From IMG/VR virus record IMGVR_UViG_3300025697_002467: a stretch of 64,000 bases of DNA. One strand, written 5' to 3'. Each line of letters opens with the position of its first letter. The first letter of the stretch is position 1. Positions 3,429 to 32,429 of the stretch are shown piece after piece. Below the pieces are notes generated by a model, which made no database searches, was not told the DNA's origin, and saw only the letters and a program-made list of their open reading frames with translations. The translations under genes were made by a program, and so were the position numbers. Source of the stretch: a virus. Taxonomy: Duplodnaviria > Heunggongvirae > Uroviricota > Caudoviricetes.

Positions 3429-3554
3429 TTAAAGCCCCATTTCTTAGGTTGAAATATTAGAGAGACTACTATTCCGAATAGAACTAAGATACAAGCTACA
3501 CCAACCCCTTCCAGGATTAGTACCATTATGGACTCAATTTCAGTTACTGGGATT

Positions 3555-4364: not shown

Positions 4365-4373
4365 TGAAACCTC

Positions 4374-4844: not shown

Positions 4845-4920
4845 AGGAATCCTTTCGTTTACAATAAAATAATGTCCTTGAATAATAATACCCCATAATG
4901 GCATCCAACTGTTTTAAAAA

Positions 4921-8942: not shown

Positions 8943-9521
8943 TCATGGTGTATACATTCCTCTATGTTCTTCCAAGAACTCATTAGTACCATGTCGAGTA
9001 TCTTTACCCGATAAAATATCTTTTAATCGGCGGTCGTATAATATTACGTTCACGGCAGCAGCCAAATTCAGGCAATGGGCTGTCGGAATCGTCACGAAAC
9101 TGTGTGCCCAGTTCAGAACCGACTTTGGTAATGACCCGTCTTCTGGCCCAAAGATATAAAGAGCATTCTCTGGGTGTTCAAAGTGTACCAGATTTTCCGA
9201 GTTCGGTCGAACTTCTATGGCCACAGGGGTCACATCAATTTTATCAAAAGCTTTCCAATATTGATCATTGTGAATAACTTCTACTTTTTGATAACCCTTC
9301 ATCCGTTCCTCCCGTGGGAGTCGGCTGAGGTCATCCAATTTATCAATCACTCGGTCTCCTGTGAACCAAAGCTGGTTCATTCCCCAACAGGAACAGGCTC
9401 TTAGAGCATTGCCTACGTTGTGTGGGTCACGGGGATTAATGAGAAGGACTCCTGGTGGCACCGGTGTTCGTTTCTTCATCATCTCTTGGATGTATTTGGC
9501 TTTAACTGCTTTAGTGCTCAT
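8943..9521 (-). CDS. SpoU/TrmH-family RNA 2'-O-methyltransferase
   Basis: SPOUT motifs NPRDPHNVGNALRAC, LYIFGPEDGSLP and IPTAHCLNLAAAVNVILYDR. Confidence 0.8.
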   Translation of the reverse strand: MSTKAVKAKYIQEMMKKRTPVPPGVLLINPRDPHNVGNALRACSCWGMNQLWFTGDRVIDKLDDLSRLPREERMKGYQKVEVIHNDQYWKAFDKIDVTPVAIEVRPNSENLVHFEHPENALYIFGPEDGSLPKSVLNWAHSFVTIPTAHCLNLAAAVNVILYDRRLKDILSGKDTRHGTNEFLEEHRGMYTP

Positions 9522-18251: not shown

Positions 18252-18321
18252 TGGTGGGAATCGAACCCTTTCGAGTCCACACATCCGAAGATATGCCTGT
18301 GTTCGTCAACACAGGATTCCC
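18252..18321 (-). ncRNA. tRNA-like structured element, non-canonical
   Basis: A 70-nt unit ending GGGTTCGATTCCC-ACCA, with a perfect GGGAATC/GATTCCC closing stem and two internal hairpins (CCTGTGTT-GACG-AACACAGG and CATATC-TTCG-GATGTG). There is no canonical D-arm or anticodon arm. Confidence 0.3.
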
Positions 18322-18327
18322 GTAAAA

Positions 18328-18405
18328 TGGTCGGGCTGCTGGGGCTTGAACCCAGAAATCTTCGGTGTAGGAGACCGCTGCTCTATCCAGTTGAGCCACA
18401 ACCCG
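18328..18405 (-). tRNA. tRNA-Arg (anticodon CCT)
   Basis: Acceptor CGGGTTG/CAGCCCG, anticodon loop CTCCTAC, T-arm CTGGGTTCAAGCCCCAG, encoded CCA. Confidence 0.7.
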
Positions 18406-18406
18406 A

Positions 18407-18739
18407 TTATTTGTACTTACGAATCCCACGAAACCCTGTCATTTGGATAGGTTCGGTGTCATATAAAGGACCAGACCTTTGAATGTATTTACCTGCTGGC
18501 CATACCACACCAGTTGTTGCACATTTCCAATCATGAGGGTATTCTTTCAGCCCTACAATCCTCATCCAACCTCGAACATTACCGTTCCAGAGAAGGTAGC
18601 ATTTATCTCCCACCTTCATTTCTTTTGGGAAATACCGTGTTTTGTAGTTCATACGGAACTTCCCGTCTTCTACGGCATCTAATTCTTTCTGGTAATCATC
18701 CCAGGATATTGTTTTCGGGATTGTGACAATCCAGTCCAT
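18407..18739 (-). CDS. hypothetical protein
   Basis: ORF of 110 aa, Trp-rich. Confidence 0.5.
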   Translation of the reverse strand: MDWIVTIPKTISWDDYQKELDAVEDGKFRMNYKTRYFPKEMKVGDKCYLLWNGNVRGWMRIVGLKEYPHDWKCATTGVVWPAGKYIQRSGPLYDTEPIQMTGFRGIRKYK

Positions 18740-18753
18740 GAGAACTCCTTAAA

Positions 18754-18837
18754 TGGCGGAAGAGACAGGAGTCGAACCTGCTAATGTTTTACCACCGACG
18801 GTTTTCAAGACCGCTTCCCACCGTTAGGCTCCCTTCC
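18754..18837 (-). tRNA. tRNA-Ser (anticodon TGA), type II with a long variable arm
   Basis: Acceptor GGAAGGG/CTCTTCC, anticodon stem GCGGT/ACCGT, loop CTTGAAA, a roughly 18-nt variable arm, encoded CCA. Confidence 0.75.
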
Positions 18838-19022
18838 AAAATAAAATGCAGAGTAGGATTGATTACCCACGAAACTGACGGTTTATCACGGCCTCCATGT
18901 AGTGTGACGGGTACTTCAACTAAACTACATACTTCCGTGTTTTCCCTGTTGTCAGATGTCCCTCGTGCAAAGGGCTAGGCCTCAAGTACCAGTTCCAGCC
19001 GTTGTCTGCAAAATTAAAGAAC

Positions 19023-19418
19023 TTAACCCAATTCCTCAATCATTTTATTGATGTCTTCCTTGGACAGATTTTGCATATCATCTGTCTCTTTCTGAGCCAA
19101 GAGGTTCATCAAGAACTGCTTTCTCTCCTTGTTGCTCTTAGCTTTCAGAACAGCTTCGTTCTCAGCTTTGCGTACCTGGATGACATGTTTGACGATATCA
19201 AATTTGTTCTTGGAAGTTTCATCAACTTTTTTTACATCATCCACAAAGGAAACCACGTCAGAAGCTTCTTTTGTTTCTTTGTACAAATCCAGGGCAATAC
19301 TATTGAGATTAGCTTTGCCAGTCTTGGAGGTTAAAGGTATGTCCCAAAGGTCTTCAGTGGTAAGATTACCTTGTGGGGTGTTAAATCGGAATTTCTGTCT
19401 TGTTGCTTTTTCAAACAT
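19023..19418 (-). CDS. hypothetical protein
   Basis: ORF of 131 aa, charged. Confidence 0.5.
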   Translation of the reverse strand: MFEKATRQKFRFNTPQGNLTTEDLWDIPLTSKTGKANLNSIALDLYKETKEASDVVSFVDDVKKVDETSKNKFDIVKHVIQVRKAENEAVLKAKSNKERKQFLMNLLAQKETDDMQNLSKEDINKMIEELG

Positions 19419-19434
19419 CTGATTTTCCTTTCAA

Positions 19435-21447
19435 TTAGAAAATGATTTTAATATCCCGTCTGAACGACCCTCTTACTCGGCACACTACCGAGTTTTTCTT
19501 CGTAGAGGAGAACCCCAGACCAGATAACTGATTGTCAGTACCTTCTATCGTTGTTTTGGAACCGACGATTTCAAGAACTTTACGGTGTTTATCAAGTTCG
19601 GTTGTGAGAAATTCATTGAAGAACCCACGAGCCTTGCCTTCATGCTTACAGCCTTCCAAGAAGAAGAAACAATGTCTGTTTCCTACTGGTTTGTCACCCC
19701 AATAGTTCGGGGAAAACATTACAGTCTGTACCTTATGGAAAGACTGAGTTGTAACATTCCAGATCGTCTTCGGAGTTTGACTGGTCGGTAAGGACGAAAG
19801 AATCTTGAATACTCCATCCTTGTACTGGATTCGAGCTACCTCTACAGTTTTCTTTGAAGGGAGGGCATTTGGGTAACTCATATGGAAAATGTTACCGTCA
19901 AATTCAATCTCTACTTCAAATCCTACATTCGTAGTGTTTCTCTTAGAATACTGATTAACACTGAGAACATAGATACCATTCTTCATCTTACGACGGTTTG
20001 GGTATGTGATGTTCTCAACAGGATCAACAGAGTTGTTCCTACCACCAGCATTCATATCTACGTCAAGTCTTCCACCTGTGCTAACTGAGCGTTTAGTACT
20101 GAAATGTATATGGTACCCACCAGCTTCTTTCATGTGGAGATCCAAATCGTCAGAGTTGAACCAACTCAGTGAACATCTGAGATCACCTGTAACATCTCCT
20201 CCGGCCTTCTTAACTCTTTCTTTAATAGAGTCAGCTACTTCCCCTGCATAACTCCAGGAAAAAGCATTCGGCCATTTGAACATCAAAGGGGCATGTTCTT
20301 GCTCTGGTGCAACCAAGCTGACAAAGTTTGGGTTGTGACGGTTTTCTACCAGAAGCTCAAGACTTTCAGCTTTAGGTAATACTTCTTTAAGGAAAATATC
20401 AATAGAAACCTCTTCCATTTTATCAGAGCTTTTGATCTTTTCAGAAGTTCCGGCAGCTACTTCATCAAACACGTCATTCATCAGTTCTTTTGCAGAACGA
20501 TCAGCAAACAACACATCGGTAGCCGAGATGTCTTCCAGTACAGCAAGGCGTCTTTCGATGGATGGTAAGAAGCCAAGGTCTTCGATTGTTTTTTTGGCTT
20601 TGGCTACCATAGTTTTGGTTACTAATGCCGTTGGACGTTTGTAGTTTTCAGGTGCAACTTTTGCTTCAAAAGAACCTACTGCATGATCCAATGCAACTTC
20701 ATTGGACAAGTCAACAAGCAGAGTACCTATTGAAGTGCTTCGGATTCTGAGTGTTGCTTCTGAACCAGACTGAACTTTTGACCAGCAGAAAAACGTCTTG
20801 TTTTCAGCTTTATCAAACTCAGTTTTCAGCTTTTTGAAGGCTGTAACTATAGCCTTCTGCTCTTCACCACGGTAAAGGGAATTCTGGCCGATGAGTTCAA
20901 GAACGGTATCAATAGCATCAACTTTGATTTCTTCCAAAGAACGGAACATCACATCAAAGGTTGAACGGTATCTGCCGAGCTTGGTTCCAATGTCTGATTT
21001 CTGGCATTGTAAACTTGCAGGGAGTTTGAGATAAAAGTGTTCCCATTGAATCCTGTCGGTGGTGCCTTCTTTTTCCTCAAAGTTCTTGTCCACTCCAATA
21101 GCACTTTCACTGTGAAGGAAGACGTTTTCAATAGCACAGGACTTCACAAGAGCGGATAAAGCATCCGTAACAGGTTGATAACCCTCACCAACCTCTACAT
21201 CCCACAGGCTTACCAACTCACCCTTATGGATGACAACCATACCACCAGCTTGTTTAATGAACTGACGGCAGCAAGAACAATCGTGTTCCGTTCGTTCTCG
21301 GAAAATTGGGTTAGTGCCTTCTTCAAAAGAATTCAGGTAAGTTTCCCAGAGCAGGTCTCTGTCGACATTTACTCGAAAAACACTACCTAACTTTTGCATT
21401 TTGCTAAAATGCACACTTATAGCTTTTTTAAAAATTGAAAAATTCAT
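19435..21447 (-). CDS. large hypothetical protein (670 aa)
   Basis: Long uninterrupted ORF with a CSCC motif near the N-terminus. No domain could be assigned by eye. Confidence 0.6.
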   Translation of the reverse strand: MNFSIFKKAISVHFSKMQKLGSVFRVNVDRDLLWETYLNSFEEGTNPIFRERTEHDCSCCRQFIKQAGGMVVIHKGELVSLWDVEVGEGYQPVTDALSALVKSCAIENVFLHSESAIGVDKNFEEKEGTTDRIQWEHFYLKLPASLQCQKSDIGTKLGRYRSTFDVMFRSLEEIKVDAIDTVLELIGQNSLYRGEEQKAIVTAFKKLKTEFDKAENKTFFCWSKVQSGSEATLRIRSTSIGTLLVDLSNEVALDHAVGSFEAKVAPENYKRPTALVTKTMVAKAKKTIEDLGFLPSIERRLAVLEDISATDVLFADRSAKELMNDVFDEVAAGTSEKIKSSDKMEEVSIDIFLKEVLPKAESLELLVENRHNPNFVSLVAPEQEHAPLMFKWPNAFSWSYAGEVADSIKERVKKAGGDVTGDLRCSLSWFNSDDLDLHMKEAGGYHIHFSTKRSVSTGGRLDVDMNAGGRNNSVDPVENITYPNRRKMKNGIYVLSVNQYSKRNTTNVGFEVEIEFDGNIFHMSYPNALPSKKTVEVARIQYKDGVFKILSSLPTSQTPKTIWNVTTQSFHKVQTVMFSPNYWGDKPVGNRHCFFFLEGCKHEGKARGFFNEFLTTELDKHRKVLEIVGSKTTIEGTDNQLSGLGFSSTKKNSVVCRVRGSFRRDIKIIF

Positions 21448-21940
21448 TTGTATTACTCCTTTGTGATGTCTGTTTATCTAAGTGGCTTTGACCACTAGCT
21501 CATTCAATATTACCCTAAAAAAGTTTGAATGCACCCCCAACGACCGATGGGCCGTACTCCTAATGTGAATTATAGAGACCCGTAAAGTTGCACCTAGGCA
21601 CCATGTCACATCACGGTGATTCCTAGTCAGGCTTCAACGACTGGGAGAACATTCAGGCCGGTAATTAATCGGCCTCTTTCAAATTTAAAAGAATACCCTA
21701 CTGGGTTTGCACCAGCATCTCCCTACTCCACGTAGGGCGGTCTTAATTAGACGAAGGGCTCTCGTAAAACAATCCAACTAATACCAAGTTCTTAAAAGGC
21801 TAAGACTGCCTCATGGTATTGTTTTCATGTCTCACTATTCAAATTCTATGTTGGACAACACGACCTTTGCACCCTACGGGTCATCCTAAGATGTAACCTA
21901 CGGGTTATCTAGTCATGTCGTCTAACATAGAATCGAAAAA

Positions 21941-22016
21941 TGGTGGAGCTGGCGGGAGTCGAACCCGCTACCTCTTGAATGCCATTCAAGCACTCTACCA
22001 GATGAGCTACAGCCCC
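21941..22016 (-). tRNA. tRNA-Ala (anticodon GGC)
   Basis: Acceptor GGGGCTG/CAGCTCC with a G3:U70 pair, anticodon stem CTTGA/TCAAG, loop ATGGCAT, encoded CCA. Confidence 0.8.
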
Positions 22017-22288
22017 AAAATATGTCGGTAGTAGTGACGATAAAACAGTCGTCCCATTTATAACCCCATGCGGGGTAACTACCTAAATTTTCAGACAATA
22101 ATGATAAACCTTGTTAGTTCCTAGCTCCATCTATCCAATAAGCATCCGGCTAAACGACCTATCCGGCAGGTATTTGTATTATCATTATCACCATATCAAG
22201 TTTCTTAAGATGGGCGTCGAAAGGCTTTAAGGAAACCGCGTCAACGACGAGATTCAATAAAGGTTGACCCCTTCAACTAACCCGCTTT

Positions 22289-22600
22289 CTATTTTCTTTT
22301 CAAAGGTTCAAACCAAGTGTTTTCTTCATTTTCATCAGCCCATTCGTTGGCTATGTGTTCTGCTTGGTAGGGATTAGTTCTCCCGTCTCCAAAGTAGATA
22401 GCACCCCAATCAAGATCTCTACTACCCGCTTTACCACGGTTACGATCTTGACGATGAATGAAGTTGAAGTCCTCTTCTTCAATGTGAAGAAGTTGTCGTA
22501 TTTTACGACGAATTGCCCGACTTGTAACTTGCTTGCCTTTTTTGGAATGATTTCCACCAGTGGCAAAGCTAAATGCAGGCTTACGGTATGACCGTGACAT
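22289..22600 (-). CDS. small basic protein (MSRSYRK family; paralog of the 17902..18168 gene)
   Basis: The internal Met of the listed 22289..22690 ORF gives MSRSYRKPAFSF...; it shares its N-terminal motif and basic character with the other copy. Confidence 0.5.
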   Translation of the reverse strand: MSRSYRKPAFSFATGGNHSKKGKQVTSRAIRRKIRQLLHIEEEDFNFIHRQDRNRGKAGSRDLDWGAIYFGDGRTNPYQAEHIANEWADENEENTWFEPLKRK

Positions 22601-23395
22601 TGTGACCTCCTTTTTAAAGGTTTCACAACATGACGGACCTCCTTCCTTGGTTAAAGATACTGAGCTGTAGGCCAAAAATACCCACACCATCTAATAGATG
22701 CCTTCACTTAGGCAAAGGTACTCAGTAAGTCATTCAGTATATTATGCCGAGCTATGAGTCATGAACTCATCAACCAATCTTTAAGTAAAACACACTCCCA
22801 AAGCTTAACTGAGAAGCTGATCAGCACTTGATACAGCTCGTAGGCAGCTACCTACAATGAATTACCAAACCAGATTAACCGCCCCTTACAGGAACAGGGA
22901 CTCTCGACATAATACACCGAACAGTTTAAATTATCAACCCTTAGCAGGGATTGAACCTGCATTCTCCACTATACGTGGCATCCTACCGTTAGAAGATAAG
23001 AGTTAGATGTGCAATCCCCTAAACAATCAAAGCCTTTCCTAGGATGCTCTTCTTTAATCTAGGTTCTTACAATTATCAAAAAACCGGTGGGTAACAGACA
23101 ACCGTGAAAGGATTGTTACTTCCTATCTCGGCAAAGAGACAGATGAGTACCTTATGGTTGATGCCTTTAGTGAGGTTGGACTAGCTTTGCAGAGCATACC
23201 AACTGAACTAATGCAGAGGTCTGAAACCCTAATTACCTTATTCAATATCCTATCAGGAAATGCAGTTCCAGACAGTTAGATTTGAACCAACGTCCTCCTG
23301 CACTCTGGCAGGTGCTCTACCAGACTGAGCTACATCCAGATTTGCATGACCTGATACGATATTGAATTGCTATTTAGTTTTCAATGAACGTCTTT

Positions 23396-23432
23396 CTTAC
23401 TACAACAACCCACGGGAATCCAAAACTAAGCC
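23396..23432 (-). promoter_or_regulatory. conserved promoter-like motif, copy 4
   Basis: Extended form TTCTTACTACAACAACCCAC...AAACTAAGCC. Confidence 0.45.
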
Positions 23433-23444
23433 AAAGTTGTAAAA

Positions 23445-23519
23445 TGGAGACCCCGACGGGGATTGAACCCGCGTTACCGGATTGAGAGTCCAGCTTCCTA
23501 GCCACTAGAAGACAGGTCC
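23445..23519 (-). tRNA. tRNA-Glu (anticodon CTC), tentative
   Basis: D-arm CTTCTAGTGGCTAGGAAG, anticodon stem CTGGA/TCCGG, loop CTCTCAA, T-arm GCGGGTTCAATCCCCGT, encoded CCA. The acceptor has one A:G mismatch. Confidence 0.5.
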
Positions 23520-23771
23520 TTAATTTTTAGTTTCTTTTCTCCAAGTTACTGTTTTTAATTTGGGTTCTTGTGGTTTGTAGTTTTCCATACTATCACCAAA
23601 TACCCTTACAAGACCTACATTATTAACTGCTGCTGTTGAGTTTGTTGGTGTAGGGTTTGTTTTTATAACTTCTGGACAATGTTCACAATGAGGACATAAA
23701 GTCCAATCATTTGTGATTTCTTTTGAAGGAAACCATTCTAAACATTGCTGGCATTGTTTACGTTGTTCCAT
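23520..23771 (-). CDS. hypothetical zinc-ribbon protein
   Basis: The listed 23520..23969 ORF runs through two tRNAs; the internal Met (MEQRKQCQQC...CPHCEHC) gives an 83-aa product. Confidence 0.4.
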   Translation of the reverse strand: MEQRKQCQQCLEWFPSKEITNDWTLCPHCEHCPEVIKTNPTPTNSTAAVNNVGLVRVFGDSMENYKPQEPKLKTVTWRKETKN

Positions 23772-23797
23772 AGTAAAATAATCTCCTAAGTAAAAAA

Positions 23798-23871
23798 TGG
23801 AGCGGGTAACCGGACTCGAACCGGTATCTCCAACTTGGAAGGCTGGGGCCCAACCCTTAGACCATACCCGC
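23798..23871 (-). tRNA. tRNA-Gly (anticodon TCC)
   Basis: Acceptor GCGGGTA/TACCCGC, anticodon stem CCAGC/GTTGG, loop CTTCCAA, encoded CCA. Confidence 0.8.
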
Positions 23872-23908
23872 TTACATATACTGATTATCATACCCTTAAA
23901 ATTAAAAA

Positions 23909-23983
23909 TGGTACGGGCGGAGGGGATCGAACCCTCGACAATTGGTTTATCAGACCAATCTTCTACCACTGAAATACACCCGT
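23909..23983 (-). tRNA. tRNA-Ile (anticodon GAT)
   Basis: Acceptor ACGGGTG/CGCCCGT, anticodon stem TTGGT/ACCAA, loop CTGATAA, encoded CCA. Confidence 0.8.
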
Positions 23984-23989
23984 TTAAAA

Positions 23990-24065
23990 TGGTGGGACTG
24001 GGGCGGCTCGAACGCCCTACTTACGAATTAAAAGTTCGTTGCTCTACCTGTTGAGCTACAGTCCC
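23990..24065 (-). tRNA. tRNA-Lys (anticodon TTT)
   Basis: Fully canonical cloverleaf: acceptor GGGACTG/CAGTCCC, anticodon loop CTTTTAA, encoded CCA. Confidence 0.85.
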
Positions 24066-24778
24066 TAATGGTTTCTTAGGTGTTTCCGAATGGCATTATC
24101 AGAAACCCCAAGTTTTTTTGCTACTTGTGTCATAGGCATACTGTTTACTAACACCATCAAGTCTTTATAGGATGGCCATTCTATTTTAGTGGGCCTTACC
24201 CTTGACTTTTCTGCACAAATTTTACATTGTTGTGAAGTATGGAACTTTACTCTTCCACAAGAACAAATAGTTTTATCTGATTGAGGTTTTCGGTATTTAT
24301 TACGTCCTTTATAAGTAGGGAGTTGGGAATCACAATGAGGGCATATAATTCTTAAATTTTCTATCCTGTTATCAGAGCTATCCCCATTTATATGGTCTAA
24401 GTGTAAGATTAAAGGCTGACCTTTCCAGATTGGCTCCTGCCCACATAAGGAACATACATTATTTAAGAGTTTCTTTGACAACAACCGATGTTTTAAATTA
24501 TATGTTGATGTGTTTGGTGAATTAGAAACCAGTATCTCTGATAGTTTCCTTTTTTTATGATACCTACTAATATTATTTGATAAATGTGATACATCAACAC
24601 CATCATTAAGTGCTCTAGTTAATAATGTCATCCTGTTTGAACCTACAGGGCGTAACCCACATCTAGTGAGGGCTTCAGACATTGTTTTAGATACTTGGAT
24701 AATATCTCTAAATTCATCAATTGTTTTTTCATAAATAATACTAGGCATTTGAACCTCCATTCTTAGTGCTTTACACAC
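24065..24778 (-). CDS. HNH homing endonuclease with a C-terminal HTH-like domain
   Basis: LDHINGDSSDNRIENLRIICPHCDSQ HNH core; paralog of the 6299..7168 gene. Its stop codon abuts the tRNA-Lys 5' end. Confidence 0.8.
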   Translation of the reverse strand: MCKALRMEVQMPSIIYEKTIDEFRDIIQVSKTMSEALTRCGLRPVGSNRMTLLTRALNDGVDVSHLSNNISRYHKKRKLSEILVSNSPNTSTYNLKHRLLSKKLLNNVCSLCGQEPIWKGQPLILHLDHINGDSSDNRIENLRIICPHCDSQLPTYKGRNKYRKPQSDKTICSCGRVKFHTSQQCKICAEKSRVRPTKIEWPSYKDLMVLVNSMPMTQVAKKLGVSDNAIRKHLRNH

Positions 24779-24866
24779 TTAGAGGGTTCAATAATACAAA
24801 AATTGAAAAAACACCCAAGAGGGTGCTCGGTGTCCTGTGTTAGACGAGAAGGTAATAATTATACGA

Positions 24867-24975
24867 TGGAGGGGAGGTTGGTAGATTCGAACTACCTCGA
24901 CCCCGTAAGACATGCAAAACAAAGAGGTCTTTCCCTATAGAGTTATTGCTGGCCATACAATAACCCCTTCTCCCC
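24867..24975 (-). ncRNA. long tRNA-like element (~109 nt), non-canonical
   Basis: Ends with the T-arm GGTAGTTCGAATCTACC followed by CCTCCCC-T-CCA, which pairs with the 5' GGGGAG. The interior has a 7-bp hairpin GTTATTG/CAATAAC and no canonical D-arm or anticodon arm. Confidence 0.25.
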
Positions 24976-24980
24976 ATAAA

Positions 24981-25057
24981 TGGTCCGATACCCCAGATTT
25001 GAACTGGGAACCTCTTGATCCCGAACCAAGCACCCTACCAGATTGGGCCAGTATCGG
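24981..25057 (-). tRNA. tRNA-Pro (anticodon CGG)
   Basis: Perfect acceptor CCGATAC/GTATCGG, anticodon stem CTTGG/TCAAG, loop TTCGGGA, encoded CCA. Confidence 0.75.
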
Positions 25058-25180
25058 TTAATTTGCCATGTACTAAAAAGTGTGGCCACACCTTCCAGTA
25101 TTTGGGTTTAGTTACCTTCTCAGAGGATCACCCTGATATACGTCTAAAACCCGTTGCCCATGGCCCAGCAGTATTCAAAA

Positions 25181-25257
25181 TGGTCGGAGTAGACAGATTT
25201 GAACTGTCGGCTTCTTGACCCCCAGTCAAGCGGTCTACCAGACTGACCTATACCCCG
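25181..25257 (-). tRNA. tRNA-Pro (anticodon GGG)
   Basis: Acceptor CGGGGTA/TACTCCG, anticodon stem CTTGA/TCAAG, loop CTGGGGG, encoded CCA. Confidence 0.75.
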
Positions 25258-25414
25258 GAAAATGTTAATACAATATTGTGTTACACACAGATTTGTGTAG
25301 TAAAACATACTCGGGCAGGAGTCGAACCTGCATTACCAAGTTAATCCCTGGCGTGTTTCCTAAACCAACACTCATGAGGTATTGGTGTTTTTTTTATCAC
25401 TACCGAGTAAAAAA

Positions 25415-25491
25415 TGGTCGAGGTACTCAGATTCGAACTGAGGACTTCCTGCTCCCAAAGCAGGCGGACTACCAGACTGTCCTATACCTCG
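25415..25491 (-). tRNA. tRNA-Pro (anticodon TGG)
   Basis: Acceptor CGAGGTA/TACCTCG, anticodon stem CCTGC/GCAGG, loop TTTGGGA, encoded CCA. Confidence 0.8.
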
Positions 25492-25725
25492 TTATTTGTG
25501 TTTTCGTTTCTTTAATCTTGGAACAGACCCCATCGGAGTCCATTCATATTCCCCATCAATAGGGAATTTTTGTATTTGTTTAGGATAATCTCCTACACCT
25601 TTGATGAGTATTCGTTTCTGTTCACCTGTCAGGTTTAAACATTCCTCAGAATCCAAGATCCATCGGATACGTTCCCAAACTTGGTACTTGTTCTCACGTT
25701 CGACCTGAATGGAGAACTGTCCCAT
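25492..25725 (-). CDS. hypothetical protein
   Basis: ORF of 77 aa sitting between tRNAs. Confidence 0.4.
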   Translation of the reverse strand: MGQFSIQVERENKYQVWERIRWILDSEECLNLTGEQKRILIKGVGDYPKQIQKFPIDGEYEWTPMGSVPRLKKRKHK

Positions 25726-25800
25726 ATTAGGGTCGTACTGAGAAACTTCTACTTCATAGCTTCCTGGCGGTGCATAGCTTCCTCCTGATGTAAAAATAAA

Positions 25801-25878
25801 TGGCGGAACATATGGGATTTGAACCCATGATCTCTGCCTTGACAGGGCAGCGTCTTAAGCCAACTAGACTAATGCTCC
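25801..25878 (-). tRNA. tRNA-Asp (anticodon GTC)
   Basis: Acceptor GGAGCAT/ATGTTCC, anticodon stem CTGCC/GGCAG, loop CTGTCAA, encoded CCA. Confidence 0.8.
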
Positions 25879-25886
25879 ATATATAA

Positions 25887-26432
25887 TTAAGTTCCTTGTA
25901 GAGCTGGAACTTGTTCACATTCTTCTCTTAATAGGGAGTACATTTTGTAATCCCTATGCTCACCTCTATTGAAAGCACATTTCCTCATCGTTCCTTCGTG
26001 CCGATAGTGACATTTCTCAGCTACTTTCTGGCAACCGATGTTATCAACATCCATCATAACTTGTAAACGAGGAGTTTCAAAGTTCTGGAAAAGATAATTA
26101 GACATGATCTTTAGTGCCTCAGTCATGTATCCTTTACTTCTGTGTTCGGCCTTAAAGATATGGAATCCGATCTCATACCCATTTACATAAGCACCATTTG
26201 AGAAGTACCCAATACTTCCGATAATGTTCTCTTGGGTGTTGCAGATAAGTAACCAACCCTCATCATTGTCCCACAAGCCTGTGTCCTTGAACTCTTTTTC
26301 GAGCTGAGACAGACTTCGAAGATATGAAGGCCAGAACTTACCTCTTTCAGTGAGATCGTTATCTAACTGAAGGTATTCTTCAAGGCCTTCTTTTCTGAAA
26401 GTTCTTAAAATAACTTTTTCACCTGTAATCAT
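25887..26432 (-). CDS. GNAT-family N-acetyltransferase (RimJ/RimL-like)
   Basis: GSIGY...YEIGFHIF...KGYMTEAL acetyl-CoA-binding region typical of RimJ/RimL-type GNAT enzymes. Confidence 0.7.
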   Translation of the reverse strand: MITGEKVILRTFRKEGLEEYLQLDNDLTERGKFWPSYLRSLSQLEKEFKDTGLWDNDEGWLLICNTQENIIGSIGYFSNGAYVNGYEIGFHIFKAEHRSKGYMTEALKIMSNYLFQNFETPRLQVMMDVDNIGCQKVAEKCHYRHEGTMRKCAFNRGEHRDYKMYSLLREECEQVPALQGT

Positions 26433-26595
26433 TTTCTCACCTCTATATAATGAACTTATTATATGATACCCAAAATGACGGGTTTCTCGGGAAGGGATTT
26501 GAACCCTCTTTACACTGACCTTTGGCCAGCATCTTTACCAGTATGTTGCATCTCCGATAATTCCCTAACAGACTGTCATGACAGTCCATTAACAA

Positions 26596-26671
26596 TGGCG
26601 ACCGTATAGGGGTTTGAACCCTAGTTGCCGAATTGAAAGTCCGGTGTCCTGACCAATTGGACGATACGGTC
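26596..26671 (-). tRNA. tRNA-Glu (anticodon TTC)
   Basis: Perfect acceptor GACCGTA/TACGGTC, anticodon stem CCGGA/TTCGG, loop CTTTCAA, encoded CCA. Confidence 0.8.
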
Positions 26672-26719
26672 ATTAAATGTTTTTGTCAGAAAAACTATAC
26701 TTTTTTCTGACAAAATAAA

Positions 26720-26794
26720 TGGCTCCTGGAACAGGATTCGAACCTGTATTGAGACGGTTAACAGCCGTCGGCCTTACCAATCGGCCATCCAGGA
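26720..26794 (-). tRNA. tRNA-Asn (anticodon GTT)
   Basis: Perfect acceptor TCCTGGA/TCCAGGA, anticodon stem GACGG/CCGTC, loop CTGTTAA, encoded CCA. Confidence 0.8.
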
Positions 26795-26842
26795 ATAAAA
26801 TTTCAATTTGTCAACATCCAATAAACTTGGACATTCAAAAAT

Positions 26843-26918
26843 TGGGGTGGATGACGAGAATTGAACTCGCCTAAACTTGGGCCACAACCAAGCGGTCAAC
26901 CACTGACCCACATCCACC
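26843..26918 (-). tRNA. tRNA-His (anticodon GTG) with an encoded G-1
   Basis: Extra 5' G opposite discriminator C73, the His identity element. Acceptor GTGGATG/CATCCAC, anticodon loop TTGTGGC, encoded CCA. Confidence 0.8.
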
Positions 26919-27030
26919 ATAATAAGAAGGACCATGTAAGGAATCGAACCTTACACCAATTAACCGGCCTAGAGGGCCTATTTCTACGAGTACCAGTTAA
27001 ACAGACTCACCACAGAGGGGTCCATAATTT

Positions 27031-27548: not shown

Positions 27549-28508
27549 TTACTGGCCTCCTGCCAAGTCTTGTAGGTTTTTGAAACGGCTGATGTATTCT
27601 TCTATAGGGACGATTGCTGTTTCAGCTACGTCCAAGGTCTTGGCATAATCCACAGCTTTCTGAAGTTTCTCAAGACACTCTTGGATTTGGTCGATATCGA
27701 AACGGACATCGGAAATATCCTTGGGGATACTTGTTATTGGGTTATCTGTTTCATCCAAGTCAATCAGGATATTCATTAACCAAGGCATCTCTGTAGCTAA
27801 AGCCCCTACACATTTATTTCCAGCAGCCTTGAACATCCCCATATCCACCAACCCTTTCAAGAGTTTTGGAGTGTTGAATGTGTCTCGGGCAGCCCTGATT
27901 GTCATCACATTATATCCATCACGCCCATAAGGGATTGCATAACCACTCAAGAAATCTTTTGGACTCATTGGCAATTGGTAGAAAACACTCGTGGCTTTGG
28001 GAGTTTTTAAACTTTCTTTACCGTTTAATGCTTTCTCTTTATCCCCAACTGCCTTATTAAGGTCGTATGGAGCCTTCGTTGCCATCATATCCAATAGGAT
28101 TAGGGAACGGATCGGATAATTGTGATTGGTCATATAGTCCTTAGCCAATTCCCAATCTTTCTCAGTTGTTGGGTGATTCCCTGAAAACTGTTTATAAGCT
28201 TCAACATTACTTTGCCATCCAAGGAATGGGACAAAGGGAGAATCTACAACGTAATCTCCAGGAACTTTATTACCATCATTCAGGGAAGATTCAGAATCAT
28301 TTTTTCCAGAGGGCAAAGTCATAAAACCTGAAGGCTTATTACCTTTGAAATCTACGTACAGGAAATAATCCAAACCGTCCACATTCCCTATCATGAGAGA
28401 CATGCCAGTGGCATCTCTTAATTCAGGGTTGGAGGTATCGGATGTGAACAGGCATGTGCCTCTTACGAAATAATTTCGTTTTTGTCCTTCAATCTTAATA
28501 AGTCTCAT
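27549..28508 (-). CDS. hypothetical protein, distal gene of the NAD/ADP-ribose operon
   Basis: ORF of 319 aa with no recognisable motif; its stop overlaps the NMNAT start region. Confidence 0.6.
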   Translation of the reverse strand: MRLIKIEGQKRNYFVRGTCLFTSDTSNPELRDATGMSLMIGNVDGLDYFLYVDFKGNKPSGFMTLPSGKNDSESSLNDGNKVPGDYVVDSPFVPFLGWQSNVEAYKQFSGNHPTTEKDWELAKDYMTNHNYPIRSLILLDMMATKAPYDLNKAVGDKEKALNGKESLKTPKATSVFYQLPMSPKDFLSGYAIPYGRDGYNVMTIRAARDTFNTPKLLKGLVDMGMFKAAGNKCVGALATEMPWLMNILIDLDETDNPITSIPKDISDVRFDIDQIQECLEKLQKAVDYAKTLDVAETAIVPIEEYISRFKNLQDLAGGQ

Positions 28509-29059
28509 AAGTATAGTCCTTTCTCGACTATGTAATCAAACACATTTTTTGGAATCATCTTCTCTACATAAGGCATATTAGTTTCGTGAGCTGCAATCAG
28601 CTCACGAATCCTGGTGGAACTGATATTAGGCATCTCCCATACCCAAATTGAATCAGAAGACCTTTCTCGTGGAACGACATGTAATCCTATCAGGTTCTCA
28701 AGGATGTTCCAATCTTTCCATCGGTGTTGCTCTAACACATTATCTGAACCTATAATGAAAGTGAAATCATTATCAGGATAGTCCCGTTGCAGGTTCGTTA
28801 CTAAGTGAATGGAGTATTTGGTCTGGTACATCTTCTCATAATGACGAACAATCACATTTGGCCATTGAGAGAAAGCTAACCGGCACATTTCCATCCGAGT
28901 CTCGAAAGGCAACAAGCTGTCATTCTTATCAAAAGCATGTTCCCAACATGGGAGCACCCAAACTTCATCAAATTTCCCAGAAGCTAATGCATCCGTAACC
29001 ATGAAAAGATGGGCTTTGTGTGGTGGGTTAAAACCACCACCGAGAATAGCAACTCTCAT
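28505..29059 (-). CDS. nicotinamide/nicotinate mononucleotide adenylyltransferase (NMNAT, NadD-like)
   Basis: ILGGGFNPPHKAH matches the (H/T)xGH nucleotidyltransferase motif; the ISSTRIR motif is also present. Confidence 0.8.
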   Translation of the reverse strand: MRVAILGGGFNPPHKAHLFMVTDALASGKFDEVWVLPCWEHAFDKNDSLLPFETRMEMCRLAFSQWPNVIVRHYEKMYQTKYSIHLVTNLQRDYPDNDFTFIIGSDNVLEQHRWKDWNILENLIGLHVVPRERSSDSIWVWEMPNISSTRIRELIAAHETNMPYVEKMIPKNVFDYIVEKGLYL

Positions 29060-29787
29060 TACTTCACCTCAAAATCAATCCCCTGCTCAAGCAGGGCTTC
29101 GTAGTTGGTTTTATCAAAACGATACTTGAGGGCTGGTCTGCCCCCACTCCGCTTCTGTCCGTCAGGAGTTAACACACCCAACTTCATTACTTTAGCTCGG
29201 AAATTCCGTTTATCAAGTTTCTGGCCGAGAATGGCCTCATAGACCTCCTGAAGCTCTGTAAGAGTAAAAGCCTCTGGTAGGACGTTAATACCTATCGGTT
29301 GCCACCTGACCTTAGATCTGAGCCTCTGAAGGCCCCTCTTAATGATCTTATTGTGGTCGAAAGCCAAGCTGGGTAATCCTGAGATAGGAAACCACTTAGC
29401 TTTGGCTGCATCGTCTCCAGCTTCGACGGTTACGTCAGCAGCACGGACGAGTGCCAGATAAGATGTGGAGATTACTCTGCCACGAGGATCTCGTCCAGGG
29501 TCTCCAAAGGTATAGAGCTGTTCCATCCAAGCCAGCTTCACGCTGGTTTCTTCTTCCAGTTCCCGAAGGACAGCTTGATCGATGGTTTCGTCTTCTTCAA
29601 GATAACCCCCGGGCAATGCCCACTGGCCTTTGAAAGGGTCGTCTTTTCGTTCAATCAGGAGAACATGGAGTTCATTCCTGTCTATGAACATCTTATCAGG
29701 CCCAATGCCGAACACCACTGCATCTACAGTATTGTCGGCCATTGGGTAATCGTATGTATATGATTGTTTTTTATTTCTCGACTTCAA
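29059..29787 (-). CDS. Nudix hydrolase (ADP-ribose pyrophosphatase-like) with a C-terminal winged-helix-like domain
   Basis: Nudix box GGYLEEDETIDQAVLRELEEETSV. Its start overlaps the NMNAT stop. Confidence 0.8.
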   Translation of the reverse strand: MKSRNKKQSYTYDYPMADNTVDAVVFGIGPDKMFIDRNELHVLLIERKDDPFKGQWALPGGYLEEDETIDQAVLRELEEETSVKLAWMEQLYTFGDPGRDPRGRVISTSYLALVRAADVTVEAGDDAAKAKWFPISGLPSLAFDHNKIIKRGLQRLRSKVRWQPIGINVLPEAFTLTELQEVYEAILGQKLDKRNFRAKVMKLGVLTPDGQKRSGGRPALKYRFDKTNYEALLEQGIDFEVK

Positions 29788-29965
29788 CGGTTGGCCATCC
29801 TTTCAGAATTTTTCTAATCCCTAAAAAAGCCACTTTGTAAGCAGCATAATGTCCTTCAAGGTATTTTAAGCTATGATCGGAATCAATACATGCTTCGTTT
29901 TTTTCTTCAAGGAGCTTGGCCAAGGCCTGTAACTCCGTATGTGCCGTTTCTATTTTTGTTGACAT
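29771..29965 (-). CDS. hypothetical small protein
   Basis: Internal Met of the listed 29771..30031 ORF; it lies between the macro and Nudix genes. Confidence 0.3.
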   Translation of the reverse strand: MSTKIETAHTELQALAKLLEEKNEACIDSDHSLKYLEGHYAAYKVAFLGIRKILKGWPTVEVEK

Positions 29966-29978
29966 CCCTACAACCCTC

Positions 29979-30905
29979 CTATTTAACAGGTACTTTAATG
30001 ATGTTTCCGTCAGCGTCACGTTTGATAGCAACGTACACCAAATTAGCAGCCGTCACATATTTCTCATCGTCTTCACGTCCTGGTCGTGAAGCTGTAACTT
30101 CTACCCGAACAGTGATGGAGGTTTTACCAATTTTGACCAGTGATGTCCAAAAACTGATTGCATCACCGATCTTCAAAGGCTTCTTAAACTCAATACCGTC
30201 CATTGCAATGGTAGCCACATCGTGGTTTGTGTGACGTTGAGCTTCCATAGCTCCTGCCAGATCAATCTCAGCCAGAACAGCCCCGCCAAAGACTTCTCCA
30301 CGGTGGTTAGTATCTCTTGGGAGCAGCATTCTACGAACTGCTAAATAACGGTCGATCTTGGAGTTAATGACAATTTTAGCAGTCTCCAATTCTTCATCGG
30401 TAAACATCACCAATGAAATTTCTTCAATGTGGTCCCATTTCCGGGAAGTGGCTGCTTTGTAAGCTATGTTGACACCCAGTTCCAGAGGACAACCATACAC
30501 ACCACAAGAGATGGCAGGGAAAGCAATCGTTTTGCATTGGGTTGCATCGGCCAATTTAAGACTATTCAAGTAGGCTTCATACAAAAGTTTTTCTTTATCG
30601 GTACCATCCGGCAGAGTGATAGCATTATCAATTTCGATGTCTGCAAACAAAGGACCCACGGTATGAATGACGTAACGTGCAGGAAGATTGTACCCTGCTG
30701 TCAGAAAAGCCTCACCTGTATAACAACGGACACCAGGTTCTTTTTCAGGAAGTTGCTCACAAGCAAACTTGAGAGCCGAGCCAGCACCACGATGGATTGC
30801 ACCATCTACACCACCACCCCCTAATAGGGAAGGACGGCCAGCATTAACGATGGCATCAACGATCATTTTGGTAATATCATCTTGAATAACAAGTATTTTG
30901 GTCAT
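29979..30905 (-). CDS. macro-domain (ADP-ribose-binding/processing) fused to a hotdog-fold acyl-CoA thioesterase
   Basis: N-terminus VIQDDITKMIVDAIVNAGRPSLLGGGGVDGAIHRGAG is a macro domain; C-terminus GGAVLAEIDLAGAMEAQRHT...ATIAMDGIEFKKPLKIGD is a YciA/4HBT-type thioesterase. Confidence 0.75.
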   Translation of the reverse strand: MTKILVIQDDITKMIVDAIVNAGRPSLLGGGGVDGAIHRGAGSALKFACEQLPEKEPGVRCYTGEAFLTAGYNLPARYVIHTVGPLFADIEIDNAITLPDGTDKEKLLYEAYLNSLKLADATQCKTIAFPAISCGVYGCPLELGVNIAYKAATSRKWDHIEEISLVMFTDEELETAKIVINSKIDRYLAVRRMLLPRDTNHRGEVFGGAVLAEIDLAGAMEAQRHTNHDVATIAMDGIEFKKPLKIGDAISFWTSLVKIGKTSITVRVEVTASRPGREDDEKYVTAANLVYVAIKRDADGNIIKVPVK

Positions 30906-30924
30906 GATTTTTTTCCTTCAGTTT

Positions 30925-31128
30925 TTAGTGTATACGTTTGCAATGATGAGGCCATACTTCTCTGCCATGATGAGGCCATACTTCATCCGTTTTCAATTCA
31001 TGATCTGTAACCTCTAGTTTAGGGGCTAAGAGGACACGCCCCCAGAACTCCTTTACATTAATAGGTTCAGGAGGGTCTACGTGCGTGAAAGGATGAATTA
31101 CATCAATGATAATCAAATCTTTTTTCAT
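30925..31128 (-). CDS. hypothetical protein containing an in-frame tandem repeat
   Basis: Encodes EVWPHHGR-EVWPHHCK from a 24-bp tandem DNA duplication. Confidence 0.35.
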   Translation of the reverse strand: MKKDLIIIDVIHPFTHVDPPEPINVKEFWGRVLLAPKLEVTDHELKTDEVWPHHGREVWPHHCKRIH

Positions 31129-31505
31129 GATTTTTCCTTTTTTCCTATGTGTTCGTGAAGGCCTCCGGCAATATCACCTTTGACATCACAGTCTGTGTTG
31201 GCAGGATACCAGTTTTCCCCTCTTTCCTCATGGAATTCCTTGTCGGATTCATGAGGGTTAGGAGCTACAATAAATCCAGGCAGTGAAGTCCCACCATCAA
31301 GACAGGTAAGAATACTGAAGGCCAGACCTTCCATCCGTTCTCGAGTGGTTTTGTCAGGAAGATCATGCCAGTATTCGGTCATCATACGAACGTGGTCAAG
31401 GAACATTTCCCTGACCTCGTCCGTGGTGTATTCTCGTGAATCAGACATGTTAATTTCCTTGGTAAAATTGTATAAGGCTGATATAATGTGTAATGGTAAC
31501 GGCAA
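31125..31505 (-). CDS. hypothetical protein
   Basis: ORF of 126 aa; the likely start is the internal Met MSDSREY. Confidence 0.45.
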   Translation of the reverse strand: MPLPLHIISALYNFTKEINMSDSREYTTDEVREMFLDHVRMMTEYWHDLPDKTTRERMEGLAFSILTCLDGGTSLPGFIVAPNPHESDKEFHEERGENWYPANTDCDVKGDIAGGLHEHIGKKEKS

Positions 31506-31650
31506 GTGCTAAAACCATAGTAATAACAACATTGAATTTTTCTATAGATTTCTTTTTGGATAATTCAAATGTCCCAGAAAAAACAAAAACCAGAACCCCA
31601 AAAAACATCATAAACCAGTGGAAATACTCATGATTTATATAATCCGGCAT
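31450..31650 (-). CDS. small membrane protein
   Basis: Two transmembrane helices in 66 aa. Confidence 0.35.
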   Translation of the reverse strand: MPDYINHEYFHWFMMFFGVLVFVFSGTFELSKKKSIEKFNVVITMVLALAVTITHYISLIQFYQGN

Positions 31651-32054
31651 TAGTTAGCTCCTTTCTGACCAAGCTGCATCAGAACCATGCTGTTAGGGAT
31701 TTTGTAGCTTTTACCGGTTACACAATCCACAACTGAGATTGGGTACTTAGGACGACGAGTGTTGATTCCAGTGATTTTAGCCATGTTGCCGTTGTTGAGG
31801 CGGATTTCTTTGTTGTAGTCATCTTCGGTCATGTTATACAAAGGAGCAAGACGTTTGAAATCAGCAGGGATACCATCTTCGGTAACAATACAGAATTTCA
31901 GTTTAGGGCTGTAACTGGCAGCGGGGTCATACTTGCCACCGTTGATGCTCATAGTCAAGCCGTGTTTCTCTACAACCTCAGCTAAAGCAGCTTTGATCTC
32001 AGAGTCCAGTGTTGTCATAAATGCTTTTGTTACCTTGGTAATTTTCTGTGCCAT
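31650..32054 (-). CDS. hypothetical protein
   Basis: ORF of 134 aa with a good RBS (ccaaggagatgaacaatg). Confidence 0.5.
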   Translation of the reverse strand: MAQKITKVTKAFMTTLDSEIKAALAEVVEKHGLTMSINGGKYDPAASYSPKLKFCIVTEDGIPADFKRLAPLYNMTEDDYNKEIRLNNGNMAKITGINTRRPKYPISVVDCVTGKSYKIPNSMVLMQLGQKGAN

Positions 32055-32098
32055 TGTTCATCTCCTTGGGTTAAGTTTTCAGTGTCGTTTTATCTTCT

Positions 32099-32134
32099 AC
32101 ACTTCAACAACCCACGAGAATCCAAAACTAAGCC
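32099..32134 (-). promoter_or_regulatory. conserved promoter-like motif, copy 6
   Basis: About 50 nt upstream of the ATG at 32054. Confidence 0.45.
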
Positions 32135-32135
32135 A

Positions 32136-32429
32136 TTATTTTTTCTTTTTAGCAGATTGTGCTGCTTCGATGAATCGGCCAAGGAATTTACTGTAGTATG
32201 TTTCAGCAGTTTCAACGGCAGCTTTCTGTGTTTTAGCTGTGAAATCCTCAGCCCAAACAGCATCCTCTGGGTCAATGATATCATTTTCATCTTTAATCAT
32301 GAAGAACACTTGATATTTTTTCTTGTCGTAGTCAACAGTAAGTTCATCTCCTGGAGCATGAACTAATGCAGCTCCAAAAAAACCATCATCCGAGTACCAC
32401 AAGCCTTTTGATTTCTTCTTAAATTTCAT
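32136..32429 (-). CDS. hypothetical protein
   Basis: ORF of 97 aa. Confidence 0.5.
   Translation of the reverse strand: MKFKKKSKGLWYSDDGFFGAALVHAPGDELTVDYDKKKYQVFFMIKDENDIIDPEDAVWAEDFTAKTQKAAVETAETYYSKFLGRFIEAAQSAKKKK

Follow-up and report, generated by a model that had tools for sequence, protein, structure and literature searches.

Known tRNA-like RNAs in phages and organelles

The closest known kind of RNA to the elements described here is represented by rnaC (species 1) and rnaD (species 2) of phage T4, which are a long-standing precedent for the general phenomenon. Both are located in the T4 transfer RNA (tRNA) cluster, on the tRNA strand, spaced by 1-6 nucleotides (nt) from the adjoining gene and beside the homing-endonuclease gene segB, and they are annotated in the T4 record only as small, stable RNAs, without function. 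When folded here, rnaC showed a T-arm (CCGGG-UUCGAAU-CCCGG) before the closing stem, extra hairpins and no anticodon arm. The t-elements of plant mitochondria are non-canonical cloverleaves that keep a GGTTCRANYCC T-arm; they mark RNA ends for cleavage by RNase P and RNase Z, and can themselves be set free as stable RNAs with a non-encoded C or CCA (PMC1920247). In phage genome papers, tRNA pseudogenes are routinely listed, for example in XacN1 (PMC5852040; PMC9897764), and large-scale surveys have reported phage tRNA-like candidates with functions unassigned (PMC10690425). Here, we have analyzed a 64,000-nt stretch of DNA (hereafter, the window) from a Caudoviricetes virus (IMG/VR record IMGVR_UViG_3300025697_002467), in which seven aberrant tRNA-like elements, E1 to E7, lie in or next to a tRNA array.

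Seven non-decoding elements in a phage tRNA array

We regard these elements, with roughly even confidence, as non-decoding derivatives of tRNA genes that arose by rapid birth-and-death turnover in a recombining, homing-endonuclease-rich island and that have each reached a different point in this process. The likeliest reading of the sequences is that E3, E4, perhaps E2, and a further element immediately downstream of E2, element (b), have been kept by selection as structured RNAs, and that E1 and E5 are lineage-specific, CCA-ending RNAs in tRNA positions. The seven elements, with lengths in nt or base pairs (bp), are as follows.

E1: 18252..18321, minus strand, 70 nt, four-way junction, 3' ACCA
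E2: 22936..23003, minus strand, weak cloverleaf with a 5-nt loop (GUAUA) and a good T-arm, without CCA
E3 core: 23265..23340, minus strand, Thr-type cloverleaf (45 bits), 'tRNA-???' of ARAGORN
E3 with arms: 23238..23370, minus strand, complementary flanks extending the acceptor stem
E4: 25308..25409, minus strand, 102 nt, canonical T-arm, without CCA
E5: 24867..24975, minus strand, 109 nt, T-arm, 3' UCCA
E6: 26476..26565, minus strand, ~90 nt, decayed tRNA-Asp paralog
E7: 26929..27023, minus strand, ~95 nt, 8-bp T-arm, without CCA

The window is part of a 402-kilobase (kb) metagenomic contig (ENA ERZ27315476, k141_864834) and thus comes from a very large phage; a megablast comparison of the phage region with 50,697 deposited phage records gave no match and no near relative. 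The seven elements are on the minus strand, within or next to the array, and, as a preliminary description of this DNA had stated, they share their strand with the tRNA genes, all of which are on the minus strand. With default settings, ARAGORN identified 27 canonical tRNAs and one 'tRNA-???' spanning positions 1116-26917, and 29 Rfam tRNA matches in the window were above threshold. Seven non-decoding elements are therefore to be set against 27 canonical tRNAs, among which those for Thr, Leu, Tyr, Phe and Trp are missing. They are confined to 18.2-27.0 kb, the first 18 kb having ordinary tRNAs only, and an encoded CCA terminates all canonical tRNAs that were read between 18 and 27 kb. The T-loop motif GGTTCRANTCC was found 16 times in the window (0.36 copies expected); four of these copies belong to E1, E4, E6 and E7, and one to a tRNA-Ser gene that ARAGORN missed.

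None of the seven elements has the 7-nt anticodon loop of a canonical tRNA, in which position 33 is U and position 37 a purine. The corresponding loops are UUCG in E1 (4 nt), GUAUA in E2 (5 nt), CAGAGU in E3 (6 nt), GAUUAA in E4 (6 nt) and AAA in E6 (3 nt), those of E2, E3 and E4 being exactly the short loops described before (GTATA, CAGAGT and GATTAA), and E5 and E7 have no convincing anticodon arm. At the 3' end, CCA is complete in E1 (ACCA) and E5 (UCCA), altered to UCA in E6 and absent from E2, E3, E4 and E7. Only E3 (45.0 bits) and E2 (37.0 bits) passed the Rfam RF00005 gathering threshold of 29 bits; E1, E4, E5, E6 and E7 gave no RF00005 match, even at E <= 10. Relaxed or intron-tolerant ARAGORN runs produced calls for E2, E5, E6 and E7, which were forced and poorly paired and came with false matches inside coding genes; thus, they were not accepted as resolving the elements. 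On this check, which had been proposed at the outset, none of the elements was resolved as an ordinary tRNA by ARAGORN.

It should be noted that the minus-strand RNA of every element folds 8-33 kcal/mol better than the plus-strand RNA, and that the stems use G.U pairs, which are mismatches on the opposite strand. E1, E4 and E5 begin 5-6 nt past the CCA of the preceding tRNA, and both E1 and E5 start with a G1-C72 pair and end with NCCA.

Conservation of structure in a related array

The nearest relative is a 10.7-kb contig, L045, which encodes an 86%-identical homolog of a DUF8224 protein neighbouring the array. Its tRNA array is syntenic with that of the window but rearranged, and gene order differs between the two lineages. 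When canonical tRNAs of like anticodon are paired between the two, identity is 68-100%, with a median of ~79% (here and in the overall identities of E2, E3, E4 and E6, gap columns are excluded). A further contig, L049 (JGI Ga0307928_10018427), carries parts of both lineages. Folding was compared with that of shuffled sequences and is reported as z.

The core of E3 contains canonical D- and T-arms, G3.U70 and A73, and the E3 family is nearest to Thr-type tRNAs. Its two arms (23343-23367 and 23240-23264), 25 nt long and 88% complementary, extend the acceptor stem by ~25 bp, and this flank complementarity is present in both lineages (z = -6.8 in the window and -6.6 in L045). Among 41 predicted pairs, none is broken in L045; the arms show a U-A to C-G compensation, and an internal loop of the window copy is closed in L045 by G.U and C-G pairs. 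The two copies are 90.5% identical, or ~93% outside the anticodon arm, which in L045 is replaced by a segment 25 nt longer. L045 also has an armless E3 paralog with the loop CAGCAG (3717-3789). All three members of the family have G3.U70, and four of the seven acceptor pairs of E3 are G.U. The E3 flank had no match in IMG/VR, and the E3 core was found in JGI metagenomes only in L049, as the L045 variant.

E4 had been thought to possess a normal D-arm. Instead, a 3-bp D-stem (GUG/CAC) encloses an insert of ~45 nt that carries a hairpin with a CAUG loop; the element occupies 25308-25409. The remainder consists of a 7-bp acceptor stem (UACUCGG/CCGAGUA), a 5-bp stem with the 6-nt loop and the T-arm (z = -3.4 for the whole fold). 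The L045 homolog (2462-2581) ends with ACCA. Five acceptor positions differ between the copies and all seven pairs hold (U-A to C-G, C-G to U-A and A-U to G.U), the short-loop stem is retained with one compensatory change and the CAUG hairpin occurs in both; altogether, 0 of 23 predicted pairs are broken at 86.7% identity. A paralog of the 3' half of E4, ending with UCCA, is present at 5772-5815 of L045. Beyond these lineages, the E4 T-arm block had a single match in IMG/VR, an unrelated tRNA-Leu-like gene adjoining a phage transfer-messenger RNA (tmRNA), and the E4 D-region pattern gave 147 chance matches in GTDB genomes and IMG/VR, none of which was followed by an E4-like element. Positions 3900-4065 of L050 (IMGVR_UViG_3300001533_000179), a contig of an unrelated phage, hold a tRNA-Leu-like gene with an insert of ~100 nt between D- and T-arm, without CCA, directly behind a permuted tmRNA.

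Palindromic hairpins centred on TCATGA or GTCATGAC were observed between tRNAs as well as in the D-loop insert of E4 (minus-strand positions 26566-26591, 25066-25105 and 25362-25385 of the window; 2490-2510 of L045). Contigs encoding an identical neighbour protein were effectively one strain; their two single-nucleotide polymorphisms fall outside the elements, at 25065 and 25077, in or beside a palindrome of the TCATGA/GTCATGAC type.

The E2 homolog in L045 (5550-5622; 35.6 bits) is 80.6% identical and has a 6-nt loop and a degenerate T-loop, UGCAAGU. Next to E2 lies a further structured element:

Element (b): 22733..22921, minus strand, ~190-nt structured RNA just downstream of E2, z = -5.4

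In element (b), a 19-bp closing stem surrounds long-range helices, and a T-arm-like hairpin, which in L045 has a true UUCGAAU T-loop, abuts the 3' strand. Copies are present in L045 (5880-6060) and L049 (4256-4436), and comparison of the three sequences revealed compensatory double changes in 10 of the 58 predicted pairs. The element has no Rfam match, and part of its L045 copy is called a 72-nt 'tRNA-Leu(taa)' by ARAGORN.

Conservation in a relative was thus observed for E2, E3 and E4 and not for E1, E5 and E7. Between the two lineages compared, E3 and E4 do not appear to be free of structural constraint. We infer that selection acts to keep the acceptor stem (or closing stem), the T-arm in all but E1 and the D-arm in E3, but not the anticodon loop. 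A conserved stem and T-arm combined with a variable loop point to the half of a tRNA that is recognised by RNase P, 3' trimming and CCA-adding enzymes. The initial suggestion of retained tRNA-derived RNAs therefore fits E3 and E4, and weakly E2, which show 80-90% identity and compensatory stems, but does not describe a single class. The suggestion that the elements are baits for anticodon nucleases is disfavoured because the loop is the least conserved part of E2 (GUAUA vs GUCAUG), E4 (GAUUAA vs UUAGA) and E3 (arm replaced).

Lineage-specific and decayed elements

E1 is a gap-free four-way junction with zero unpaired junction bases, in which a 7-bp closing stem (GGGAAUC/GAUUCCC) is joined to three hairpins capped by GACG, UUCG and GAAA. 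Its minimum free energy (MFE) fold has -33.4 kcal/mol (z = -4.46, MFE frequency 0.83). The length of 70 nt, the closing stem, the UUCG hairpin and the ACCA end had all been recognised correctly, whereas only two internal hairpins had been counted. The textbook T-arm attributed to E1 (GGTTCGATTCC) had to be abandoned: a fold in which it was forced reached only -21.3 kcal/mol, a cost of 12 kcal/mol, and the letters of the would-be arm are divided between hairpin 3 and the closing stem. The 15 nt preceding the terminal CA are those of the T-arm region of tRNA-Lys(CUU), which suggests that the 3' end of E1 is of tRNA origin. The element is situated 6 nt after tRNA-Arg(CCT) and 5 nt before tRNA-Arg(UCU). 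In L045 its position is taken by an HNH gene that has a promoter of its own; no homology to E1 was found in the spacer or promoter that L045 has there.

E5 is composed of a 6-bp closing stem, an 11-bp hairpin, a large internal loop and a T-arm (GGUAG-UUCGAAU-CUACC). It starts 5 nt past tRNA-Pro(CGG); a terminator-like hairpin (24828-24809) comes next, and then an HNH gene. Where the window has E5 and this gene, L045 has a different open reading frame (ORF). ARAGORN calls E5 only in relaxed intron mode and with another acceptor stem. A 45-amino-acid ORF over E5 (24840-24977) was judged spurious because it begins directly after the tRNA and has no ribosome-binding site. Three elements had been described as 95-117 nt long; this was correct for E5 (109 nt, TCCA end), but E6 measures ~90 nt and E7 ~95 nt, and their coordinates had to be revised.

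The L045 sequence that aligns with E6 is an intact tRNA-Asp(GUC) ending with GCCA (1315-1389; 56.9 bits, 75% identity); E6 itself has two A.A acceptor mismatches, a 5-nt insert after the T-arm, the loop AAA and UCA in place of CCA. Since the window also retains an intact tRNA-Asp elsewhere (25801-25878), E6 is a pseudogene. It lies ~40 nt upstream of a GNAT gene, a place occupied by a tRNA or relic in both lineages. E7 has a 5-bp closing stem (GGACC/GGUCC), a D-like arm and a GGCC-CUCUA-GGCC hairpin. Its neighbours are tRNA-His on one side and a terminator-like hairpin on the other, and the Arg(UCU) call that ARAGORN makes for it appears only at -ps80 and includes two acceptor mismatches. The acceptor stems of both E6 and E7 are poorly paired, and E7 is probably a decaying relic or pseudogene as well. 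Decaying pseudogenes, one of the three explanations initially offered beside unusual tRNAs and tRNA-derived regulatory or decoy RNAs, are thus found in E6 and plausibly in E7, but not in E3 and E4, whose pairing is kept. The set is heterogeneous, so no single one of the three can fit all of it. Overall, the preliminary description proved largely correct in its facts, apart from the points of anatomy revised here, and its interpretation proved correct in part.

Turnover of tRNA genes in the array

A tRNA ancestry is indicated by the alignments of E6 to tRNA-Asp and of E3 to Thr-type tRNAs, by the tRNA-Lys-like 3' end of E1 and by the enrichment of the T-loop motif. The structure of the arrays also speaks of rearrangement. 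L049 is a mosaic in which the left part (1-2270) is 99.9% identical to the window and the right part (2171-4847) 97.7% identical to L045, with the junction at tRNA-Ile, a gene that is 100% identical in both lineages. Thus, the two lineages recombine inside the array, at tRNA genes. Homing-endonuclease genes are found in both arrays:

HNH homing-endonuclease gene: 24065..24778, minus strand, PF13392, between E5 and tRNA-Lys(UUU)
Further HNH genes: 6299-7168 in the window (minus strand) and 9977-10486 in L045

When homologs of the first gene were examined in 11 unrelated IMG/VR contigs scanned with ARAGORN, a same-strand tRNA ended 29-155 nt upstream in 10 of them (29-99 nt in nine), and duplicated isoacceptors often surround such homologs (loci L001-L015). 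SegB, the homing endonuclease of the T4 tRNA cluster, has a target that includes the conserved T-arm motif (PMC2330249). L045 possesses tRNA-like genes of its own, for example a CCA-ending element with a 6-nt loop (2731-2809) where the window has tRNA-Pro(GGG). Taken together, the mosaic contig, the differing gene orders and the lineage-specific tRNA-likes of L045 suggest continual duplication, replacement and decay of tRNA genes, and the locus provides a view of array reshuffling by homing endonucleases and recombination at tRNA genes.

Similar elements occur in unrelated phage arrays. We counted 37 inter-tRNA gaps of 50-170 nt in the fetched loci, 5 of them in the window; several of the gaps (in L008, L012, L017 and L003) contain tRNA-likes with a T-loop and closing stem that ARAGORN missed, and short- or long-loop 'tRNA-???' genes with CCA are present in L010.

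Other features of the locus

Further features of the window comprise a tRNA, a second structured element and a promoter-like motif.

tRNA-Ser(UGA): 18755..18837, minus strand, genuine tRNA with encoded CCA, missed by default ARAGORN
Element (c): 21843..21933, minus strand, long hairpin (arms of 22 nt, cargo of 47 nt) immediately following tRNA-Ala, z = -7.5
Promoter-like motif copy: 23395..23432, minus strand, GGCTTAGTTT...GTGGGTTGTTGTAGTAAGA, ~25 nt upstream of the E3 5' arm

The tRNA-Ser(UGA) gene, which was absent from the earlier list of elements, has an unusual short D-arm, and the only Rfam model to detect it was that of tRNA-Sec (39 bits). L045 has a copy of 95% identity, whose anticodon stem differs by a compensatory change from G-C to U-A. 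A relative of element (c) with a 155-nt cargo is present at a different site in L045 (5190-5391), where it is bordered by ATT on both sides, as compared with a single ATT in the window; element (c) could be a mobile hairpin resembling a miniature inverted-repeat transposable element (MITE). The region 21471-21933 of the window has no equivalent in L045. Within this window-specific insert, downstream of element (c), the ARAGORN -ps option gave a weak 'tRNA-Pro(tgg)' (21691-21761, minus strand) with a non-canonical T-loop and no CCA.

The GTGGGTTGTTGTAGTAAGA motif has 10 copies in the window (0.02 expected), some of them preceded by GGCTTAGTTT. Nine are on the minus strand, which carries most genes (7322, 13460, 14205, 23395, 27491, 45026, 61808, 62992 and 63746), and the only plus-strand copy (45097) forms a divergent pair with that at 45026. 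Most copies are intergenic, and the motif is probably a phage-specific promoter, conserved in L045. Genes near the island encode a SpoU-family RNA methyltransferase and, in an NAD/ADP-ribose cluster, an NMNAT-like cytidylyltransferase, NUDIX/NrtR, a Macro domain, an ADP-ribosylglycohydrolase and NAD synthase (regions 8943-9521, 28505-33379 and 42301-43401, minus strand; gene table of L039); these genes may have counter-defence functions.

Possible role of the elements and alternative explanations

If the elements are derivatives of tRNA genes, they would be co-transcribed with the flanking tRNAs and may be recognised by the tRNA-maturation machinery, with RNase P cutting the 5' end and the 3' end being trimmed back to CCA or receiving it; the long E3 stem might also be an RNase III site. 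The context agrees with co-transcription and tRNA-like processing: E1, E4 and E5 are spaced like tRNAs, a terminator-like hairpin comes after E5, a promoter-like motif lies before E3, and the place of E6 upstream of the GNAT gene has a tRNA or its relic in both lineages. By analogy with T4 species 1 and plant t-elements, they could punctuate polycistronic transcripts and be freed as small stable RNAs. A role as substrates of RNase P or CCA enzymes is plausible, and retention of some of the derivatives, either as signals for RNase P-type processing or as stable RNAs like T4 rnaC, is probable. No CCA-adding enzyme or RNA ligase was seen among 30 of the larger ORFs of the window.

Several observations weigh against this reading. 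The processing of the elements is pure inference, and a role in punctuation does not explain the perfect pairing of E1. The comparison of lineages involves one diverged relative, L045 and L049 sharing the same variant, and covariation between two sequences is statistically weak, with RNAalifold favouring covarying pairs. In mosaic genomes such as these, stretches of high identity may stem from recent exchange and not from selection. Furthermore, E2 (z = -1.05), E5 (z = -1.4) and E7 (z = -0.5) fold no better than shuffled sequences, E1, E5 and E7 have no counterpart in L045 and no homolog found anywhere, and the window copy of E4 has lost its CCA.

Some of these observations would be expected if all seven elements were neutral pseudogenes or debris of rearrangement by homing endonucleases, which would owe their apparent structure to the parent tRNAs. 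The pseudogene status of E6 is clear, z-scores are unremarkable for E2, E5 and E7, three elements are missing from L045 and the CCA of E4 is gone; HNH genes and mosaicism are documented here, endonucleases of the SegB type target T-arm sequences (PMC2330249), and the elements were picked via T-arm motifs, which introduces an ascertainment bias. However, E3 and E4 are conserved above most bona fide tRNAs with all predicted pairs kept, and the E3 arms and element (b) show compensatory and G.U to Watson-Crick changes that are specific to the transcribed strand. In addition, the gap-free tetraloop junction of E1 (z = -4.5, MFE frequency 0.83) would hardly result from random decay. Neutral debris therefore seems an unlikely explanation for the whole set.

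A second possibility is that E3, E4 and E1 are conserved, anticodon-less mimics of the tRNA body, matured by the tRNA machinery, that titrate or block host factors or defence nucleases, or that E3, with G3.U70 and A73, carries alanine for a task outside decoding, like tmRNA; we consider this quite doubtful. A related idea, in which we place little credence, is that the elements are decoys or competitive inhibitors of tRNA-targeting host defences (anticodon nucleases, or nucleases recognising the tRNA body), offering a tRNA body with an uncleavable or absent loop. It is known that phage tRNAs counter tRNA-targeting defences (PMC10264068, PMC11555353), the D/T elbow of E3 is intact, and shortened or tetraloop 'anticodon' arms recur in E1, E2, E3, E4 and E6, in two L045 copies and in one of L010. 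However, the recurrence of 6-nt loops is partly an artefact, since ARAGORN gives '???' only for loops of 6 to 8 nt. Moreover, anticodon nucleases read the loop sequence, yet the loops differ between lineages and the E3 arm is replaced in L045, and a defence or anti-defence protein partner is not evident beside the elements.

E3 and elements (b) and (c) could also be viewed as MITE-like mobile DNA, with the stems as terminal inverted repeats and the tRNA-like part as cargo. Consistent with this view, (c)-type elements occupy differing sites in the two lineages, with ATT flanks in L045, and three arm pairs open with a similar TTC-W-R-TAT motif. On the other hand, G.U pairs of the arms are A.C mismatches on the other strand, and the lineages switch between G.U and Watson-Crick pairs, which points to a constraint at the RNA level. 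E3 and (b) are also found at matching places in the two lineages, the number of copies per window is no more than one or two, and a transposase was not identified; mobility of this kind is accordingly improbable as an explanation. Finally, it is very improbable that some of the elements are charged, functional tRNA-like molecules employed outside normal decoding, either E3 alanylated like the tmRNA domain or short-loop recoding tRNAs: alanyl-tRNA synthetase recognises acceptor-stem minihelices independently of the anticodon, G3.U70 is present throughout the E3 family and the D- and T-arms of E3 are canonical, but no family member has the encoded CCA of every canonical tRNA read here, G3.U70 may be incidental given four G.U among seven acceptor pairs, ARAGORN finds no tmRNA and Rfam tmRNA matches are sub-threshold on tRNA-Ala, and no SmpB-like or Fem-like partner was identified. 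Thus, turnover of tRNA genes with selective retention of some derivatives is the reading that we prefer.

Comparison with known systems

The tmRNA domain and YrlA are anticodon-less tRNA mimics, and E3 shares G3.U70 and A73 with tmRNA; the order of parts in element (b), namely closing stem, long-range helix and T-arm, is also that of the tmRNA domain. Membership in the tmRNA family was rejected, as neither an ARAGORN tmRNA nor a tag reading frame was found in the window. The best Rfam tmRNA match in the island had 42 bits (threshold 47) and fell on tRNA-Ala, and the permuted-tmRNA model reached 23 bits. Likewise, the YrlA model (RF02553, threshold 69 bits) gave at best 25 and 23.8 bits across the window and L045, both matches spanning adjacent true tRNAs; moreover, the acceptor stem of YrlA is closed by a loop, whereas that of E3 is extended.

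With regard to the pseudogenes listed for other phages, E6 is similar, having a functional-tRNA homolog and a disrupted acceptor, loop and CCA. In contrast, the conservation of E3 and E4 equals that of functional tRNAs and comes with compensatory changes, and no tRNA is as ordered as E1. The spacers of 5-6 nt past CCA, together with G1-C72 and NCCA in E1 and E5, are a context compatible with t-elements; as t-elements are organellar and not from phages, the likeness is a functional analogy only.

The general layout of T4 rnaC, in which a T-arm and a closing stem lie towards the 3' end of an RNA that has a non-tRNA interior and is encoded in a tRNA cluster, recurs in E4, E5 and E7. The likeness to rnaC and rnaD is one of layout, and sequence homology is not expected. 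T4 has two such RNAs, whereas the window has seven or more with several architectures, and two of these have no T4 counterpart: E3, a cloverleaf on a conserved 25-bp stem extension, and E1, an all-tetraloop junction ending with ACCA, are unusual members. Annotation of phage tRNA arrays usually relies on tRNA finders, and what these leave is treated as spacer; our data suggest that, in one array, a sizeable share of tRNA-sized slots consists of non-decoding derivatives. If E3 and E4 are indeed under selection, they would provide a second, sequence-defined example of the class to which T4 species 1 belongs, and this class could then be studied by comparison and by experiment, since compensatory changes can be traced between lineages.

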